11,448 bases of DNA from a virus (lineage: Duplodnaviria; Heunggongvirae; Uroviricota; Caudoviricetes). A program made the translations under genes and the position numbers. Below the pieces are notes generated by a model. The model made no database searches. It was not told where the DNA came from and saw nothing but the letters and a program-made list of their open reading frames with translations. Shown here one piece after another: positions 685-7,381 of the stretch; within the stretch, counting starts at the first letter, position 1, and every line of letters begins with the position of its first letter. The DNA lies in IMG/VR virus record IMGVR_UViG_2529292830_000009. One strand, 5' to 3'.

Positions 685-2159
685 TGGCAATTCTTGATGA
701 TGTGATTGGCGTTTTTTCACCAGGATGGAAAGCGGCAAGGCTGCGTTCCCGTGCGGTGATCCAGGCTTATGAGGCCGTAAAAACGACGCGGACACACAAA
801 GCCCGACGGGAGAACCGAACTGCCGACCAGTTAAGCCAGTACGGGGCCGTGTCGTTACGTGAGCAGGCCCGTTACCTTGATAACAACCACGATCTGGTTA
901 TTGGTGTATTTGACAAGCTGGAAGAACGGGTGGTGGGGAAAAACGGGATTATTGTCGAGCCACATCCGGTATTACGCAATGGGGCCATTGCCCGTGATCT
1001 GGCAGCGGAGATACGTACCCGATGGAGTGAATGGTCTGTCAGTCCGGAGGTCACCGGGCAGTTTACCCGTCCGATGCTGGAACGTCTGATGCTGCGTACC
1101 TGGCTGCGCGATGGTGAGGTGTTTGCCCAGATGGTTTCCGGGCGCATAAACAGCCTGACGCCTTCTGCCGGTGTTCATTTCTGGCTGGAGGCGCTCGAGC
1201 CGGACTTTATTCCCATGACCAGTGATGAGAGCAACAGGCTGAATCAGGGCGTGTTTGTTGATGACTGGGGGCGTCCCGAAAAATATCTGGTGTATAAAAG
1301 TCGTCCTGTATCCGGACGGCAGATGGAAACCAAAGAAGTGGATGCAGAGCGAATGCTGCATCTTAAATTTGTTCGCCGTCTGCACCAGATGCGCGGGACG
1401 TCTTTATTGTCCGGTGTGCTGATCCGCCTCAGCGCCCTGAAAGAGTATGAAGATTCTGAGCTGACTGCAGCAAGGGTCGCCGCTGCTCTGGGGATGTACA
1501 TCCGCAAAGGCGACGGACAGAGCTATGAAACGGATGGTAATTACAGCAAGGAGAATGAACGCGAGCTTACCATTCAGCCAGGCATTATTTACGACGATCT
1601 GAAACCCGGCGAAGAAATCGGAATGGTGAAGTCGGATCGCCCAAATCCTAACCTTGAAACTTTTCGTAATGCTCAGTTGCGTGCCGTGGCGGCGGGCAGT
1701 CGTCTGAGTTTTTCCAGTACAGCGCGCAACTATAACGGCACTTACAGCGCCCAGCGTCAGGAGCTGGTTGAATCCACTGATGGCTACCTGATCCTGCAGG
1801 ACTGGTTTATTGGTGCCGTCACCCGCCCGATGTATCGTGCCTGGCTGAAACAGGCTGTGGCATCCGGTGTTATCAGGCTACCCCGCGATCTTGACCGTTC
1901 TTCACTGTATACCGCGGTGTATTCCGGACCGGTGATGCCGTGGATTGATCCTGTTAAGGAGGCTGAGGCCTGGAAAATCCAGATTCGTGGTGGAGCGGCG
2001 ACAGAATCAGACTGGGTACGTGCAGGTGGTCGTAATCCGGATGATGTCAAACGTCGGCGCAAGGCCGAAATTGATGAAAACCGCAAGCTGGATCTGGTAT
2101 TTGATACCGATCCGGCCAGTGATAAAGGAGGCAGCAGTGCCGCAACGAAACGACAGTAG
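684..2159 (+). CDS. Phage portal protein
   Basis: A 491-aa ORF between the W-like gene and the prohead protease, the canonical portal position and size. ATG 684 is preceded by GAGG at 675..678 and overlaps the W stop (TGATG). The GTG at 612 in the ORF track would overlap W by 73 nt and is less plausible. Ends TAG 2157..2159. Confidence 0.8.
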   Translation: MAILDDVIGVFSPGWKAARLRSRAVIQAYEAVKTTRTHKARRENRTADQLSQYGAVSLREQARYLDNNHDLVIGVFDKLEERVVGKNGIIVEPHPVLRNGAIARDLAAEIRTRWSEWSVSPEVTGQFTRPMLERLMLRTWLRDGEVFAQMVSGRINSLTPSAGVHFWLEALEPDFIPMTSDESNRLNQGVFVDDWGRPEKYLVYKSRPVSGRQMETKEVDAERMLHLKFVRRLHQMRGTSLLSGVLIRLSALKEYEDSELTAARVAAALGMYIRKGDGQSYETDGNYSKENERELTIQPGIIYDDLKPGEEIGMVKSDRPNPNLETFRNAQLRAVAAGSRLSFSSTARNYNGTYSAQRQELVESTDGYLILQDWFIGAVTRPMYRAWLKQAVASGVIRLPRDLDRSSLYTAVYSGPVMPWIDPVKEAEAWKIQIRGGAATESDWVRAGGRNPDDVKRRRKAEIDENRKLDLVFDTDPASDKGGSSAATKRQ

Positions 2160-4164
2160 CCGCAGTACACCGACGACCAGTCCGAAGAATAATTCCTGGT
2201 TCAGGATGCAGGCTGGTCACCAGAGTGACGCGGATATTTATATTTATGACGAGATTGGTTTCTGGGGGGTTACAGCGAAGCAGTTTATCAGTGATCTGAA
2301 TGCACTGGGCGATATCACCCACATTAATCTCCATATCAATTCACCGGGTGGCGATGTCTTTGAAGGCATCGCCATTTTTAATGCGCTGAAAACACATGGT
2401 GCGTCCATTACCGTTTATGTCGACGGTGTGGCGGCATCAATGGCGTCGGTCATTGCGATGGTGGGAAACCCGGTCATTATGCCGGAAAACACCTTCATGA
2501 TGATTCATAAACCATTTGGCTTTACGGGCGGTGATGCGGAGGACATGCGCACCTATGCCGACCTGCTCGATAAAGTTGAGGCGGTTCTGTTACCCGCTTA
2601 TGCACAGAAAACCGGGAAAACCACCGATGAAATTGCTGCCATGCTGGCGGATGAGACCTGGATGTCCGGTGCCGAATGTCTGGCACATGGATTTGCTGAT
2701 CAGGTGACGCCAGCCGTTAAGGCAATGGCATGTATTCAGTCAAAACGTACAGAGGAATTTAAAAAGATGCCGGAATCCATTCGAAACATGATTACTCCGC
2801 CACGCAACAGTGCTCCACGCGTACAGGATAATGAACCTGCAGCTTCCCGGACGCCAGTGCAGGCAGCAGCACCCGTGGTGGATGAAAACAGTATCCGTGC
2901 GCAGGTACTGGCAGAGCAAAAAGCGCGTGTAAACGGTATTAATGATCTGTTTGCCATGTTTGGCGGGCGTTATCAGACGCTGCAGGCTCAGTGTCTTGCC
3001 GATCCTGAATGTTCGCTGGAGCAGGCCCGCGAAAAGCTGTTGAACGAGATGGGGCGCGAGTCCACGCCATCCAATAAAAATACCCCGGCTCATATTTATG
3101 CCGGTAACGGTAATTTTGTGGGGGACGGGATCCGCCAGGCGCTGATGGCGCGTGCCGGATTTGAAAAAACCGAACGTGATAATGTCTACAACGGGATGAC
3201 CCTGCGTGAATATGCCCGTATGTCACTGACTGAACGGGGTATTGGGGTTTCCAGTTATAACCCGATGCAGATGGTCGGTGCGGCGTTCACACACAGTACG
3301 TCTGACTTCGGTAATATTCTGCTGGATGTTGCGAACAAAGCCATTCTGCAGGGCTGGGAAGATGCCCCTGAAACCTATGAACAGTGGACGCGGAAAGGTC
3401 AGTTGTCTGATTTTAAAATTGCCCATCGTGTGGGTATGGGGGGCTTCAGTGCTCTGCGTCAGGTGCGTGAAGGGGCGGAATATAAATACGTCACCACCGG
3501 AGATAAACAGGCCACTATTGCACTGGCGACCTATGGCGAGCTGTTCAGTATCCCCCGTCAGGCCATTATCAATGATGATCTGAATATGCTGACCGATGTC
3601 CCGATGAAACTGGGCCGTGCGGCGAAATCCACTATTGCCGATCTGGTTTATGCCATTCTGACGTCTAACCCGAAAATCTCCACAGATAATGTAAGTCTGT
3701 TCGATAAAGCGAAACATGCAAACGTACTGGAGAGCGCTGCAATGGACGTGGCATCGCTGGATAAAGCCCGCCAGTTGATGCGCGTTCAGAAAGAGGGGGA
3801 GCGTCATCTGAATATTCGTCCTGCGTTCGTACTGGTACCGACGGCGATGGAGTCTGTTGCTAACCAGGTCATTCGCTCCTCAAGTGTCAAGGGGGCTGAC
3901 ATTAACGCCGGTATTATTAACCCGGTGAAAGATTTTGCGACCGTTATTGCAGAGCCTCGTCTTGATGATAACAGCCTGACCACCTTCTACCTGGCTGCGT
4001 CAAAAGGCTCCGATACGATTGAAGTGGCTTATCTCAACGGTGTGGATACGCCATATATTGATCAGATGGAGGGCTTCAGTGTGGATGGCGTGACAACGAA
4101 AGTGCGTATTGACGCCGGTGTCGCGCCAGTTGATCACCGCGGTCTGGTGAAATGTACGGCGTAA
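2137..4164 (+). CDS. Fused prohead protease (ClpP/S14-like) - scaffold-like linker - major capsid protein (HK97-type fold inferred)
   Basis: One uninterrupted frame. The N-terminal part (DADIYIYDEIGFWG...INSPGGDVFEGIAIFNALK...VDGVAASMASVIAMVGNPVIMPENTFMMIHKP) has the ClpP-like serine protease signature, including the likely nucleophile in AASMAS. The middle is a Q/A/E-rich helical stretch (SIRAQVLAEQKARVNGINDLF...LEQAREKLLNEMGRE). The C-terminal ~370 aa looks like a phage major capsid protein by size, composition and position. The start is taken as GTG 2137 because of a strong SD (AAAGGAGG at 2124..2131, 5-nt spacer); ATG 2206 (MQAGHQSDADIYIY...) is an alternative. The track's ATG 1945 start would overlap the portal by over 200 nt and is rejected. 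Confidence 0.75.
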   Translation: MPQRNDSSRSTPTTSPKNNSWFRMQAGHQSDADIYIYDEIGFWGVTAKQFISDLNALGDITHINLHINSPGGDVFEGIAIFNALKTHGASITVYVDGVAASMASVIAMVGNPVIMPENTFMMIHKPFGFTGGDAEDMRTYADLLDKVEAVLLPAYAQKTGKTTDEIAAMLADETWMSGAECLAHGFADQVTPAVKAMACIQSKRTEEFKKMPESIRNMITPPRNSAPRVQDNEPAASRTPVQAAAPVVDENSIRAQVLAEQKARVNGINDLFAMFGGRYQTLQAQCLADPECSLEQAREKLLNEMGRESTPSNKNTPAHIYAGNGNFVGDGIRQALMARAGFEKTERDNVYNGMTLREYARMSLTERGIGVSSYNPMQMVGAAFTHSTSDFGNILLDVANKAILQGWEDAPETYEQWTRKGQLSDFKIAHRVGMGGFSALRQVREGAEYKYVTTGDKQATIALATYGELFSIPRQAIINDDLNMLTDVPMKLGRAAKSTIADLVYAILTSNPKISTDNVSLFDKAKHANVLESAAMDVASLDKARQLMRVQKEGERHLNIRPAFVLVPTAMESVANQVIRSSSVKGADINAGIINPVKDFATVIAEPRLDDNSLTTFYLAASKGSDTIEVAYLNGVDTPYIDQMEGFSVDGVTTKVRIDAGVAPVDHRGLVKCTA

Positions 4165-4187: not shown

Positions 4188-4207
4188 GGCCCGTAAGGGC
4201 TTTTTTT
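4188..4207 (+). terminator. Putative rho-independent terminator or attenuator after the capsid gene
   Basis: GGCCC-GTAA-GGGC followed by seven Ts (4201..4207), 24 nt after the capsid stop. The stem is short (4 to 5 bp), so it is probably partial. Confidence 0.45.
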
Positions 4208-4250: not shown

Positions 4251-4574
4251 ATGGCAAAGAATTTTGTAGAAGAAGGAAAAACGGTGGCGATTGTTGCCAG
4301 TGCAGCCATCAGCAGTGGAGATCTGGTGCAGGTGGGTGATGTTTTTGCGGTAGCGCTGACCGATATTCCACAGGGTGAAACAGGCGACGGCCTGACCGAA
4401 GGTGTGTTTATGCTGCCTAAGCTGAAAACGGATGACATGAAAACGGGTAAGAAGGTTTATCTGAAGTCCGGAAAAGTTCAGTTGACTAACAGCGGCTCTG
4501 ATCCGCTGGTCGGGGTTGTCTGGGCAGATGCCGGAACCAGTGCAGAAGAAGTGCCGGTAAAACTCAATGTCTGA
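4251..4574 (+). CDS. Small capsid-associated protein in the head-decoration position (resembles the DUF2190 family as I recall it)
   Basis: 107-aa ORF immediately after the capsid gene (MAKNFVEEGKTVAIVASAAISSGDLVQVGDVF...). GGAG at 4241..4244 sits 6 nt before ATG 4251. The track's earlier ATG 4206 lies inside the upstream terminator and hairpin region and is unlikely. Function is inferred from position only. Confidence 0.55.
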   Translation: MAKNFVEEGKTVAIVASAAISSGDLVQVGDVFAVALTDIPQGETGDGLTEGVFMLPKLKTDDMKTGKKVYLKSGKVQLTNSGSDPLVGVVWADAGTSAEEVPVKLNV

Positions 4575-4842
4575 TCCCTTTTCCCGGCTGGCAGCGCGTA
4601 TGGATGCGATCACGGTCAGAAAGATGGGAAAGACAGCCTCGATTAATGATGTCGATATGACTGTGATCCCGGGAGAAACACTGGCAGAGCTGAATGCTCT
4701 GTCCGGACCTGCGGTCTCTCTGGTGGTGTTTTCTTCGGGATACCGCCCACGGCGCGGGGATCGCGTTGTTTATGACGGACAACAATGGACGGTCACACGG
4801 CATGAACGCTTTAACGGTAAGCCAATGATCTTTATTGAGTAA
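4567..4842 (+). CDS. FII: Head-tail connector protein, lambda gpFII-like
   Basis: 91 aa. Similarity to lambda FII in two stretches: FSRLAARMDAITVRKMGKTASIND versus lambda DNLFDAAIARADETIRGYMGTSATI, and YRPRRGDRVVYDGQQWTV versus lambda VRQLRRGDTLTIGEENFWV. Lies directly upstream of the Z homolog; its start overlaps the previous stop (ATG 4567, TGA 4572..4574). Confidence 0.7.
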   Translation: MSDPFSRLAARMDAITVRKMGKTASINDVDMTVIPGETLAELNALSGPAVSLVVFSSGYRPRRGDRVVYDGQQWTVTRHERFNGKPMIFIE

Positions 4843-5852: not shown

Positions 5853-6596
5853 ATGACCACACCAAATCCACTGGCAAAAACGAAAGGTGCGGGAACGACG
5901 TTCTGGATGTATACCGGCAACGGCGATGCGTTTGCGAACCCTTTGTCGGACACTGACTGGTTGCGTCTTGCGATGGTGAAGGATCTGCAACCTGGCGAAA
6001 TGACCGCTGATGCAGAAGATGACACTTATCTCGATGATGAAGATGCAGACTGGAAAACGACAACCCAGGGGCAGAAATCCGTCGGTGATACTTCGGCGAC
6101 GCTGGCCTGGCGTCCGGGGGACAGCGGGCAGAAAAAACTGGTTCAGTTGTTCGACTCCGGTGAAGTCTGCGCGTTTCGTATCAAATATCCCAACGGTACT
6201 GTTGATGTTTTCCGTGGCTGGCTGAGTTCACTGGGTAAAACCATTGCCTCAAAAGACGTGATGACCCGCACCGTGAAAATCAGCGGTGTGGGGCGTCCGT
6301 ATCTGGCAGAGGAAGGCACTGAAACCGTGGGCGTTACCGGGCTGACGGTGGCACCGGCATCTGCCAGTGTAAAAGTGGGAGCAACCACCCCGCTGACCTT
6401 TACAGTAAAACCTGACGGAGCCAGTGACAAAGCGATCAGTGTGCATTCGACAGATCCACAGACTGCCACGGTGACCCTGAACGGGCTTGTGGCCACGGTG
6501 AAAGGCGTGAAGCAGGGCAGTGTCAGCATTGTGGGCATGACTTCTGACGGCGATTTTGTGGCAGTGGCTACGGTGGCTGTCAGCGCCGCAGGTTAA
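5853..6596 (+). CDS. V: Major tail protein, lambda gpV homolog with C-terminal Ig-like domain
   Basis: MTTPNPLAKTKGAGTTFWMYTGNGDAFANPLSDTDWLRLAMVKDL.PGE.TA...DDTYLDDEDADW.TT.QGQKS.GDTS.TLAW.PG...NGTVDVFRGW.SS.GK is near-collinear with lambda V. The C-terminal ~85 aa (GLTVAPASASVKVGATTPLTFTVKPDG...) correspond to the Ig-like (Big_2-type) domain of gpV. AAGGAGG at 5841..5847 sits 5 nt before ATG 5853. Confidence 0.92.
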   Translation: MTTPNPLAKTKGAGTTFWMYTGNGDAFANPLSDTDWLRLAMVKDLQPGEMTADAEDDTYLDDEDADWKTTTQGQKSVGDTSATLAWRPGDSGQKKLVQLFDSGEVCAFRIKYPNGTVDVFRGWLSSLGKTIASKDVMTRTVKISGVGRPYLAEEGTETVGVTGLTVAPASASVKVGATTPLTFTVKPDGASDKAISVHSTDPQTATVTLNGLVATVKGVKQGSVSIVGMTSDGDFVAVATVAVSAAG

Positions 6597-6656: not shown

Positions 6657-7043
6657 ATGTTTCTGAAACAGGGCACGTTTAATTATGAAAAACAGTCCGT
6701 GGTGCTCAGTGAGCTGTCCGGGCTGCAGAGAATTGAATATCTGGCGTTTGTTCAGCAGCGAACGGCAAAGTTTGATGCCGGGGAGGGAGAACTGCCGGAG
6801 GCTGAACGACAGATTGCTTTTCTGCGGATGGGGATGGATATCAATGCCTGGCTGGTTTCCCGCTCACTGTGGAATGCGGATCAGTCTAAGGATGTAGAGA
6901 CGCTTTGCGCATCCGTTATTACAACATGGTCGTATGATGCCCTGGGTGCGGGGGCGGAGATGGTTCTGTCGCTGAGCGGTATGGGGGCCATTGATAATGC
7001 CGGGGATGATGAGCATGAGGCGCTGACGCCGGAAAAGTCCTGA
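6657..7043 (+). CDS. G: Tail assembly chaperone, lambda gpG homolog
   Basis: MFLKQGTFNYEKQSVVLSELSGLQRIEYLAF... against lambda G MFLKTESFEHNGVTVTLSELSALQRIEHLAL...; also LSLSGM against lambda YRLSGM near the C-terminus. GGAG at 6647..6650 sits 6 nt before ATG 6657; ATG 6654 is the adjacent in-frame alternative. Stop TGA 7041..7043. Confidence 0.85.
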   Translation: MFLKQGTFNYEKQSVVLSELSGLQRIEYLAFVQQRTAKFDAGEGELPEAERQIAFLRMGMDINAWLVSRSLWNADQSKDVETLCASVITTWSYDALGAGAEMVLSLSGMGAIDNAGDDEHEALTPEKS

Positions 7044-7381
7044 CGCGGGAAATGCAGTTTGTCATGCGGCTTGCCCGGGAGTTCCGGCGGGCAGACTGGC
7101 GGCGGATGCTGTCGGAAATGTCGGCCACTGAGCTTGGTGAGTGGGGCGATTATTTCCGGATGCAGAGCTTCAGTGATGTGTGGATGGATGCGCAGTTTGC
7201 CTCGCTGAAGGCATTGATCGTGAGAATGGTGTCCGGCAGCAGTGATGCTGCGGTGGCTGATTTCAGCCTTTTACCGGAAGAGAACGGGATACCGGAGCGA
7301 ACGGACGAAGAACTGATGCATCTTGGAGAAGGTATTTCCGGAGGTGTGCGTTATGGACCAGATAGCCAACCTGGTCATTGA
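7019..7381 (+). CDS. T: gpT-like -1 frame extension, expressed as a G-T fusion by programmed frameshift (full product about 6657..7381 with a shift near 7031..7037)
   Basis: The -1 frame relative to G opens at 7019, after in-frame stops at 6992, 6995, 7007, 7010 and 7016, and runs to TGA 7379..7381. It encodes ...REFRRADWRRMLSEMSATELGEWGDYF...GEGISGGVRYGPD, matching the lambda T segment (REFHRPDWRRMLAEMS...GGVRYGPDG) as I recall it. No convincing independent RBS precedes the internal ATG at 7052. Confidence 0.75.
   Translation, partial: GADAGKVLTREMQFVMRLAREFRRADWRRMLSEMSATELGEWGDYFRMQSFSDVWMDAQFASLKALIVRMVSGSSDAAVADFSLLPEENGIPERTDEELMHLGEGISGGVRYGPDSQPGH
7031..7037 (+). promoter_or_regulatory. 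Candidate -1 ribosomal slippery site for the G-T frameshift
   Basis: G GAA AAG in the G frame, the only A-rich slippery run in the 22-nt window (7019..7040) where both frames are open. It differs by one base from the lambda heptamer G GGA AAG. The A-site shift AAG to AAA is canonical; the P-site shift GAA to GGA is not a perfect re-pairing. Confidence 0.45.

Follow-up and report, generated by a model that had tools for sequence, protein, structure and literature searches.

The open reading frame at positions 2137–4164 of an 11,448-nt stretch of viral DNA (IMG/VR record IMGVR_UViG_2529292830_000009; hereafter the window) is, with a probability that we place at about 0.93, the head-shell gene of a lambdoid Escherichia coli prophage of the Gifsy-2/mEp460/cdtI type. 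This reading includes a putative nested translation start inside the gene and a probably defective state of the present copy. The predicted product is a single polypeptide of 675 amino acids (73.5 kDa) in four parts: a ClpP-fold protease, a disordered linker, a three-helix scaffold with a probable distant relation to Nu3 and an HK97-fold capsid domain. All genes, domains and motifs of the window given with coordinates below lie on the + strand.

The fusion as such is already described: it constitutes a named, curated family, and its orthologue is the “tripartite capsid gene” of Gifsy-2. The comparative evidence for an internal translation start, drawn from sequence, is the sole new observation.

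Family assignment, start codon and domain layout

The protein matches the NCBIfam model NF045540 (scaf_prot_MCP1; ClpP-like prohead protease/major capsid protein fusion protein) with 981.6 bits, against a cut-off of 475. The alignment is full length, residues 32–674 covering profile positions 2–651 of 652. Both features of the family, a ClpP-fold protease with its catalytic residues and a C-terminal HK97-fold capsid domain, are present. PHROG 133 matches residues 15–675. In the E. coli chromosome NZ_CP115984.1, nearly identical to the window (3 differences in 11,448 bases), PGAP gives the NF045540 name to a gene at identical coordinates. The Gifsy-2 tripartite capsid gene (STM1034.3n) shows 70% identity over 669 amino acids, with the same three-part layout.

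No stop codon interrupts the reading frame between 1945 and the TAA at 4162–4164, a run of 739 codons counted from TTG 1945. Translation from GTG 2137 yields 675 amino acids, and from ATG 2206, 652. The first-pass annotation had described a single frame of 676 to 739 residues; the single frame holds, while the figure of 676 counts the stop codon. It had also left the choice between the two starts open, and our data support GTG 2137 over ATG 2206. A Shine-Dalgarno (SD) sequence, AAGGAGG (2125–2131), lies 5 nt 5′ of GTG 2137, and its anti-SD duplex reaches −11.6 kcal/mol, versus −2.2 for ATG 2206. Homologues from Gifsy-2 and Pseudomonas retain the motif NSWFR, encoded 5′ of Met24; at residue 24, 48 of 122 aligned homologues have Ile, and residues 22–26 form a confident β-strand in the AlphaFold (AF2) model. 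The mEp460 record places the gene start at ATG 2206.

The protease domain spans residues 18–192 (2188–2712), with a Pfam CLP_protease match at residues 31–191 (E=2.8e-36). Its catalytic residues Ser101 (2437–2439), His124 (2506–2508) and Glu173 (2653–2655) are conserved in the homologue alignment. Pfam and NCBIfam both assign the domain to ClpP (S14) and not to S49, the match to SppA being weak (8.6e-5); the 60 matches listed in a sequence search of PDB chains were all ClpP.

Next comes a hypervariable P/A/T/Q-rich linker, residues 224–247 (2806–2877), disordered in the model (pLDDT <50) and differing in sequence and length among close homologues. The scaffold-like domain, residues 250–307 (2884–3057), is defined by the AF2 model and by an hhalign alignment to the Nu3 part of lambda gpC. 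Its three helices (250–273, 280–288 and 294–307) are modelled with high confidence, and R264 is nearly invariant. A low-confidence segment, residues 308–326 (3058–3114), joins scaffold to capsid: the pLDDT falls to 55 and 72 in two blocks spanning residues 311–330, and 105 of 122 homologues retain P311. This segment is likely the maturation cleavage region, within which the cleavage site itself is predicted.

The remainder, residues 327–675 (3115–4161), is the major capsid domain, modelled in the HK97 fold with a long spine helix at 483–510. Pfam matches it to Phage_capsid_4 at residues 375–672 (E=4.6e-53) and also assigns Mu-like_gpT. The complete model, built on a 122-sequence alignment, has an overall pLDDT of 88.5 and displays the ClpP fold, the disordered linker, the three scaffold helices and the HK97-fold domain. 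A first model based on 17 sequences of 75–96% identity (pLDDT 34.8) was discarded, the larger alignment being needed. Profile matches and predicted folds thus bear out the combination of ClpP-like protease, scaffold-like region and capsid domain in one gene that had been read from the letters of the sequence.

Neighbouring genes and the state of this copy

The fused gene is preceded by a gene for a lambda B-type portal protein (681–2159; PGAP; Pfam Phage_portal_2, E=4.5e-82), whose last 23 nt overlap its start. Directly 3′ of the capsid gene, a consensus scan detects a terminator-like hairpin, GGCCC-GTAA-GGGCT, with a T run (4188–4207); the mEp460 record has a rho-independent terminator annotated at the same site. 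The two genes that the first-pass annotation placed after the fusion, one of 107 residues and then “FII”, are present at 4251–4574 and 4567–4842. By its sequence, the 107-residue product is a head decoration (cement) protein (Pfam Phage_cement_2, E=2.3e-20; PHROG 122 “head decoration”, 4.9e-47), 61% identical to its counterpart in Gifsy-2. The second gene encodes a head-tail joining protein of 91 amino acids that matches a Gifsy-2 family of Pfam (E=1.8e-17) and gives a weak match, below the cut-off, to the lambda FII family Phage_attach (E=0.0018). Some phage records call it the Hc1 head closure protein.

The gene order is that of Gifsy-2: portal, fused gene, 107-residue decoration gene, head-tail joining gene and lambda-type tail genes, of which Z, U, V, G, T, H, M and L are shared downstream. 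Gifsy-2 differs by its host, Salmonella instead of E. coli, and by the length and sequence of the linker; as far as sequence data can show, its mechanism does not differ.

The prophage holding this copy is probably defective. Just upstream, the terminase large-subunit gene is split by an IS66-family element, and a private A-to-C change at 3553 produces T473P in the most conserved motif of the capsid domain. Among 240 related ORFs and 122 aligned homologues, no other has proline at position 473, and the exact 71-mer around the change occurs in 0 of 2,019 matching E. coli genomes. Because a nearly invariant capsid position is altered and the terminase gene is disrupted, the fused gene is possibly no longer in use. 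We regard it as a serious possibility, although not the one that we favour, that the copy is a decaying remnant which no longer makes working capsids, the description of the family remaining right. Against this stand an uninterrupted ORF, 99% identical to those of phages that form plaques, and the possibility that the one altered base is a sequencing error within a run of C.

A putative nested start at ATG 2767

Inside the fused gene, an SD core AGGA (2753–2756; GAGG at 2752–2755) lies 10 nt 5′ of ATG 2767. Initiation there, at Met211, would give a nested in-frame product (2767–4164) of 465 amino acids and 50.7 kDa that contains scaffold and capsid without the protease. Of 91 non-redundant family genes, 87 have an ATG in the linker whose SD duplex is at least as strong as −5.4 kcal/mol; among other in-frame ATGs, 9.6% carry such a duplex (background ~10%).

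In the position weights of the family, AGGAG appears at −14 to −10. Across the clade of the window, the motif is kept while the residues that it encodes vary (EE, ED, QE, GD, KD). Residue −5 is E, K or Q, yet its codon is of the form NAG, and Glu at this position is GAG in 27 of 29 cases versus 46% gene-wide; in 10 genes the motif lies in a different codon phase. These are signatures of selection on the nucleotide sequence. Because the residues at −5 share only NAG, with this preference for GAG and these shifts of phase, we rejected a peptide motif, [E/K/Q]-[E/D]-x-x-x-M-P (for example a cleavage site), as the main explanation.

The mRNA is also open at this site. In the window, the minimum free energy near ATG 2767 is −1.4, versus −10.6 ± 3.8 elsewhere in the gene; across the family, folding at the internal site is −6.4 versus −12.4 kcal/mol (Wilcoxon 4e-15, a P value that overstates independence, as the 91 genes share kinship). 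The low structure and low GC content may in part be a consequence of the amino acids that the linker contains.

Two proteins outside the standard layout bear on the same position. One of 443 residues, P0166, starts at a Met-Pro homologous to Met211-Pro212; together with P0232 (468 residues), it is possibly a split form of the fusion. The other, L193, belongs to NF045541 (scaf_prot_MCP2), fusions with a different protease whose scaffold and capsid parts are homologous to those of the window protein (397 bits over residues 222–672, below the cut-off of 525). It also has an internal start, at K-E-N-I-M. Its N-terminal region shows no alignment to the protease domain of the ClpP type; from reading the sequence we take this region to be an HK97/S78-type protease. 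L193 had been considered as a separate scaffold-capsid gene, as had L157; both candidates were rejected, the former being a fusion with a different N-terminal region and the latter a ClpP-type fusion cut by the edge of its locus.

A simpler account is that only the full-length polypeptide is made, so that all ~415 subunits of the shell bear protease and scaffold, and that the internal SD and ATG are either a relic of a capsid gene that was once separate or a chance product of the composition of the linker. The upstream SD is indeed far stronger (−11.6 versus −6.0 kcal/mol at the internal site, where the window has only the 4-nt core at a spacing of 10–11 nt), gene callers and PGAP annotate one product, and by our own estimate ~415 copies of the 35-kDa internal part fit a T=7 procapsid. 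A relic should nonetheless decay in a hypervariable linker, yet SD, ATG and open mRNA are kept in 87 of the 91 genes, down to 35% identity, and the start signals occur also in the family with the different protease, in L193. We consider this account unlikely. Moderately favoured by the comparative data is an arrangement of nested genes, in which an internal ribosome-binding site and ATG would direct synthesis of a protease-free scaffold-capsid protein and so set the dose of protease per procapsid.

The literature that we searched holds no mention of the internal start; a structural study of Gifsy-2, which carries the orthologue of the window gene, reportedly by Effantin et al. 2010 (Virology 402:355), was outside that search and may already note it.

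Spread of the fusion and relation to other phage heads

With a query coverage of at least 80% demanded, 2,014 of 5,426 complete E. coli genomes (~37%) carry the fused gene. Homologues in Shigella, Salmonella, Citrobacter and Kosakonia have 75–96% identity and the same length (668–690 residues), and among the 150 best 50%-identity cluster representatives 129 are full-length fusions (35–60% identity, median 676 residues). The phages mEp460, cdtI, phi458, Ayreon and Tritos are 99% identical to the gene at the DNA level, 16 phage records at 98% identity or more hold the same uninterrupted ORF, and mEp213 is listed alongside the phages of NF045540 and PHROG 133. Deposited phage records disagree on the start of the gene and on its name, which may be protease, Nu3, major head protein, scaffold or protease/scaffold.

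The first-pass annotation had kept open a sequencing or assembly frameshift by which a gene for protease and scaffold was joined to a capsid gene of its own. We found no support for such an artefact. Where phage records contain a related ClpP-type protease, mostly the protease region alone matches the query, the fused form occurring in 80 of 1,643. The artefact is refuted by this conservation in genomes, phage records and cluster representatives, by the same ORF in NZ_CP115984.1 and by the existence of a curated full-length HMM. Neither of the two outcomes that the annotation had named as refuting its reading, a C-terminal domain outside all capsid families and folds or homologous loci with two separate genes, was seen.

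With lambda the likeness is partial. The protease and scaffold parts align with lambda gpC, including its Nu3 part (hhalign probability 86.7%, E=4.4e-6, 263 columns), which suggests a distant relation to gpC/Nu3; the portal and terminase belong to lambda families, and lambda likewise adds a decoration protein. The capsid domain has no detectable sequence relation to lambda gpE (hhalign probability 0.2%), which is moreover encoded by a separate gene, and the decoration protein is of the Phage_cement_2 family, different from gpD. The earlier view of a head that is not lambda-like is thus right for capsid and decoration, but probably not for protease and scaffold. Nor are C and Nu3 encoded separately in lambda, as had been stated: Nu3 is nested in C, its in-frame start giving a protease-free assembly protein. 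The putative start at ATG 2767 would be its counterpart, and Mu I/Z are assembly genes nested by an internal start in the same manner. A homology between the Nu3 start and Met211 was rejected, as the start of Nu3 lies within the protease fold, at residue 239 of gpC.

HK97 gp4/gp5 offers the other parallel, a scaffold fused N-terminally to an HK97-fold capsid protein and removed by the phage protease in the procapsid. The first-pass reading of this strategy, extended by a protease in cis, is supported in its centre. The HK97 protease is encoded by a separate gene and is of the S78 type with a herpesvirus-like fold, whereas that of the window is ClpP-like and fused; HK97 has covalent chainmail and no decoration protein, while here a decoration gene follows the fusion. 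Because the 107-residue gene encodes a decoration protein, the assembly scheme is a hybrid of HK97 and lambda and not purely HK97-like.

The same architecture is described further afield. In Pseudomonas phage MD8, the product of one gene, gp5, has a ClpP-like protease at its N-terminus, joined to a scaffold and to an HK97-fold capsid domain like that of Mu gpT (PMC8508860), and Paracoccus prophage proteins of ~700 residues are built alike (PMC6536676). These come from distant hosts and are likened to the window protein by their described architecture, not by sequence. Relatives of the fusion were found at 35–57% identity to the window protein. A CBASS preprint deals with a protease-scaffold fusion in T1-like phages, which has no bearing on this gene.

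For Gifsy-2, published work reports a fusion of the genes for prohead protease and coat (PMC12315714), a T=7 capsid (PMC8814770) and a trimeric protein on every threefold axis (PMC8538268). By analogy with the family and with this work, the capsid domains would assemble on the portal into a T=7 procapsid that encloses the scaffold and protease parts. Concentrated within the shell, the protease would remove everything upstream of about residues 308–326; DNA packaging would then expand the shell, and trimers of the 107-residue decoration protein would cement the threefold sites. From the comparative data, a second initiation at ATG 2767 may add the protease-free protein, so that shells would be a mix of protease-bearing and protease-free subunits, a counterpart of the lambda C/Nu3 nesting.

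As a discovery the fusion itself means little, being a named family carried by more than a third of complete E. coli genomes, with a structurally studied orthologue. The practical value lies in annotation: the start at GTG 2137 is supported, the 107-residue neighbour is named as a decoration protein, and the names in the records prove inconsistent. If the internal start is confirmed, it would explain how a phage with protease and shell in one gene avoids placing a protease on every subunit, and the principle known from lambda C/Nu3 would then hold for an entire family of head genes.

A single gene for protease, scaffold and capsid protein

The frame of the fused gene is open from 1945 to a TAA stop at 4162-4164, with the motif AAGGAGG lying 5 nt ahead of GTG 2137. 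Translated from this codon, the product has 675 residues; the first-pass annotation placed the ORF correctly, and its length of 676 residues had counted the stop codon. It had also proposed an N-terminal protease and a C-terminal capsid domain, and profile searches returned both: Pfam CLP_protease at residues 31-191 (E=2.8e-36) and Phage_capsid_4 at residues 375-672 (E=4.6e-53), with Mu-like_gpT as a weak match. The protein scores 981.6 bits over positions 2-651 of 652 of NF045540, a curated full-length NCBIfam model of the same architecture with a cut-off of 475 bits. A match to PHROG 133 spans residues 15-675. The fused gene is already known, named and widespread.

We built an AlphaFold model on 122 diverse homologues, with a pLDDT of 88.5. 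A compact N-terminal domain (residues 18 to ~192) is followed by two short helices, a disordered segment (224-247) and three helices (250-307); beyond a drop in confidence at ~311-330 lies the large C-terminal domain, whose long helix spans 483-510. Of the 122 homologues, 120 retain Ser101 and 120 retain His124, and residue 173, which aligns with the catalytic Asp of ClpP, is acidic (Glu or Asp) in 116. We regard the domain content, the folds and the catalytic residues as shown. Together with the full-length NF045540 match, the model bears out in essence the initial reading of one protease, scaffold and capsid gene. At the end of the protease part, Pro212 and an F-x-x-x-P motif (2761-2772; homologue alignment A4) are conserved in 118/122 homologues and could be a docking or cleavage element.

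The start codon had been left ambiguous between GTG 2137 and ATG 2206. GTG 2137 is favoured because its Shine-Dalgarno duplex is far stronger (-11.6 vs -2.2 kcal/mol), the residues NSWFR ahead of Met24 are kept in Gifsy-2 and in Pseudomonas phage homologues at 56% identity, 48 of 122 homologues have Ile instead of Met at position 24, and residues 22-26 form a confident β-strand in the model. A circulating allele carries a 1-nt deletion (window 2142; viral locus L243, 1700-1850) in the 23-nt overlap between the portal and fused genes. The portal ORF and the protease-scaffold-capsid ORF then share one frame, so that gene calls run to 1159 residues (for example database proteins P0006-P0008 and P0010), and GTG 2137 falls out of frame with the capsid ORF.

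Conservation of the fusion and comparison with lambda

The E. coli NCCP 13717 chromosome differs from the window at 3 of 11,448 bases, and its PGAP annotation at 2137-4164 carries the NF045540 name. Phages mEp460, cdtI, phi458, Ayreon, Tritos and others are 98-99% identical to this region. At least 80% of a 2.8-kb query is matched in 2,014 of 5,426 complete E. coli genomes, and homologues from Shigella, Salmonella, Citrobacter and Kosakonia are colinear (75-96% identity, 668-690 residues). A search of 1.84 billion cluster representatives, the best 150 of which were examined, gave 129 full-length fusions with 35-60% identity and a median length of 676 residues. The fusion is thus conserved, and the suspicion that a frameshift artefact had joined two genes is refuted by its uninterrupted form in these genomes and representatives. 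Among 1,643 phage GenBank records with a related ClpP-type protease, 80 have the fused form; in most of the remainder the query match is limited to the protease region. The arrangement is therefore a minority one, yet old and stable.

The fused gene is orthologous to that of Salmonella phage Gifsy-2. Both phages share the order terminase, small adaptor gene, portal, fused gene, 107-aa gene and 91-100-aa gene, and lambda-type Z, U, V, G, T, H, M and L genes then come downstream. Effantin et al. reportedly described the Gifsy-2 protein as ClpP-like at its N-terminus and a capsid protein at its C-terminus, with a central domain of ~200 residues that is said to have a possible scaffolding role. 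For Gifsy-2, papers that cite Effantin et al. give a fusion of the coat gene with the prohead protease gene (PMC12315714), a T=7 capsid (PMC8814770) and, at every threefold axis, a trimeric protein (PMC8538268). The same protease-scaffold-capsid architecture occurs in gp5 of Pseudomonas phage MD8 (PMC8508860) and in one third of Paracoccus siphovirus prophages (PMC6536676).

Aligned with lambda gpC, the family profile covers 263 columns, including the Nu3 part (hhalign E=4.4e-6, probability 86.7%); with lambda gpE it shows no relation. As in lambda, the portal belongs to the lambda B family and the upstream terminase carries a gpA-type annotation. The 107-aa product is a decoration (cement) protein from a family distinct from that of gpD. 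From these assignments, the module is lambda-like in order and probably distantly related in its protease and scaffold part, but its capsid and decoration proteins come from other families and its capsid coding sequence is fused to that of protease and scaffold. Directly behind the capsid gene and ahead of the decoration gene, a terminator-like hairpin with a T run lies at 4188-4207, where mEp460 has an annotated rho-independent terminator at the matching site; it may set the ratio of capsid to downstream transcripts.

State of this copy

The window begins inside the transposase gene of an IS66-family element (ISCro1); ORF 22-369 encodes the C-terminus of the transposase. The element interrupts the terminase large-subunit gene immediately upstream, of which the final 84 nt remain at ~392-475, and DNA packaging by this prophage is probably blocked. 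Compared with NCCP 13717, an A-to-C change at 3553 produces T473P in the most conserved capsid motif, F-S-I-T-R-Q-A-I-I-N-D-D. Proline at 473 is absent from 240 related ORFs and 122 aligned homologues, and the exact 71-mer with the change from all 2,019 matching E. coli genomes. Its cause may be the decay of a defective prophage, or else a miscalled base within a run of C.

The remaining two differences, at 6390 and 8441, fall in the tail tube and tape measure genes. The lambda-type tail tube protein (5853-6596) ends in a Big_2 Ig-like domain (residues 161-241, E=6.5e-12). The G and T tail assembly chaperone genes (6657-7381) are annotated separately. Relative to G, the T ORF occupies the -1 frame, which fits a lambda-type G/GT frameshift; the end of G lacks lambda's slippery heptamer GGGAAAG and reads CCGGAAAAGTCCTGA instead.

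A candidate internal start and the probable working of the head gene

In an alignment of distant homologues, the hypervariable linker nearly always contains a Met after E/K/Q and E/D residues. We collected relatives' DNA from IMG/VR and reduced it to 91 genes below 90% identity; these are kin, and the statistics overstate their independence. An in-frame linker ATG with upstream anti-SD pairing of -5.4 kcal/mol or better occurs in 87 of the 91, a level reached by 9.6% of the remaining in-frame ATGs and, out of frame, by 10.9% of linker ATGs. Position weights give AGGAG at -14 to -10, then ATG-CCN for Met-Pro. The residue at -5 may be E, K, Q or others, yet its codon is NAG; Glu there is encoded by GAG in 27 of 29 cases, against 46% gene-wide, and 10 genes have the motif shifted to a different codon phase. 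Such a pattern suggests that the RNA sequence, and not a peptide motif, is under selection. Over the 50 nt spanning the site, mean MFE is -6.4 kcal/mol, compared with -12.4 for the remainder of these genes (Wilcoxon 4e-15), and 96% of control windows are more structured than the site. Linker composition contributes to this low structure.

The window's clade takes in Gifsy-2 and Pseudomonas phages; its site corresponds to ATG 2767 (Met211), where the MFE is -1.4 vs -10.6 ± 3.8 kcal/mol elsewhere in the gene. Its core AGGA (2753-2756) persists while the encoded residues vary among EE, ED, QE, GD and KD. The N-terminus of P0166, a database protein of 443 residues, is the homologous Met-Pro. Judged from sequence, initiation at ATG 2767 would yield a product of 465 residues and 50.7 kDa, with scaffold and capsid domain but no protease; in function it would probably correspond to Nu3 of lambda, which is nested in C. 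The two start positions are not homologous, since Nu3 begins at gpC residue 239, inside the protease fold.

In the scheme that we propose, a T=7 procapsid would form on the portal from the capsid domains and enclose the scaffold and protease parts, and the high concentration within it would activate the protease. It would then cut the low-confidence segment at ~308-326 and degrade the internal parts; the shell would expand upon packaging, and the 107-aa protein would bind as trimers. Two co-terminal products are probably made, so that only some subunits would carry the protease.

The candidate internal start is the sole element of the fused gene that may be new. Its sequence feature recurs, as an internal K-E-N-I-M context, in a fusion on a viral contig (L193, 58-1971). 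The scaffold and capsid part of L193 is homologous, while its N-terminal region does not align to the ClpP-type protease domain; its sequence reads as a putative prohead protease of the HK97/S78 type, and we would provisionally assign the gene to NF045541 (scaf_prot_MCP2). If this reading is true, the protease module has been exchanged and the fusion kept.
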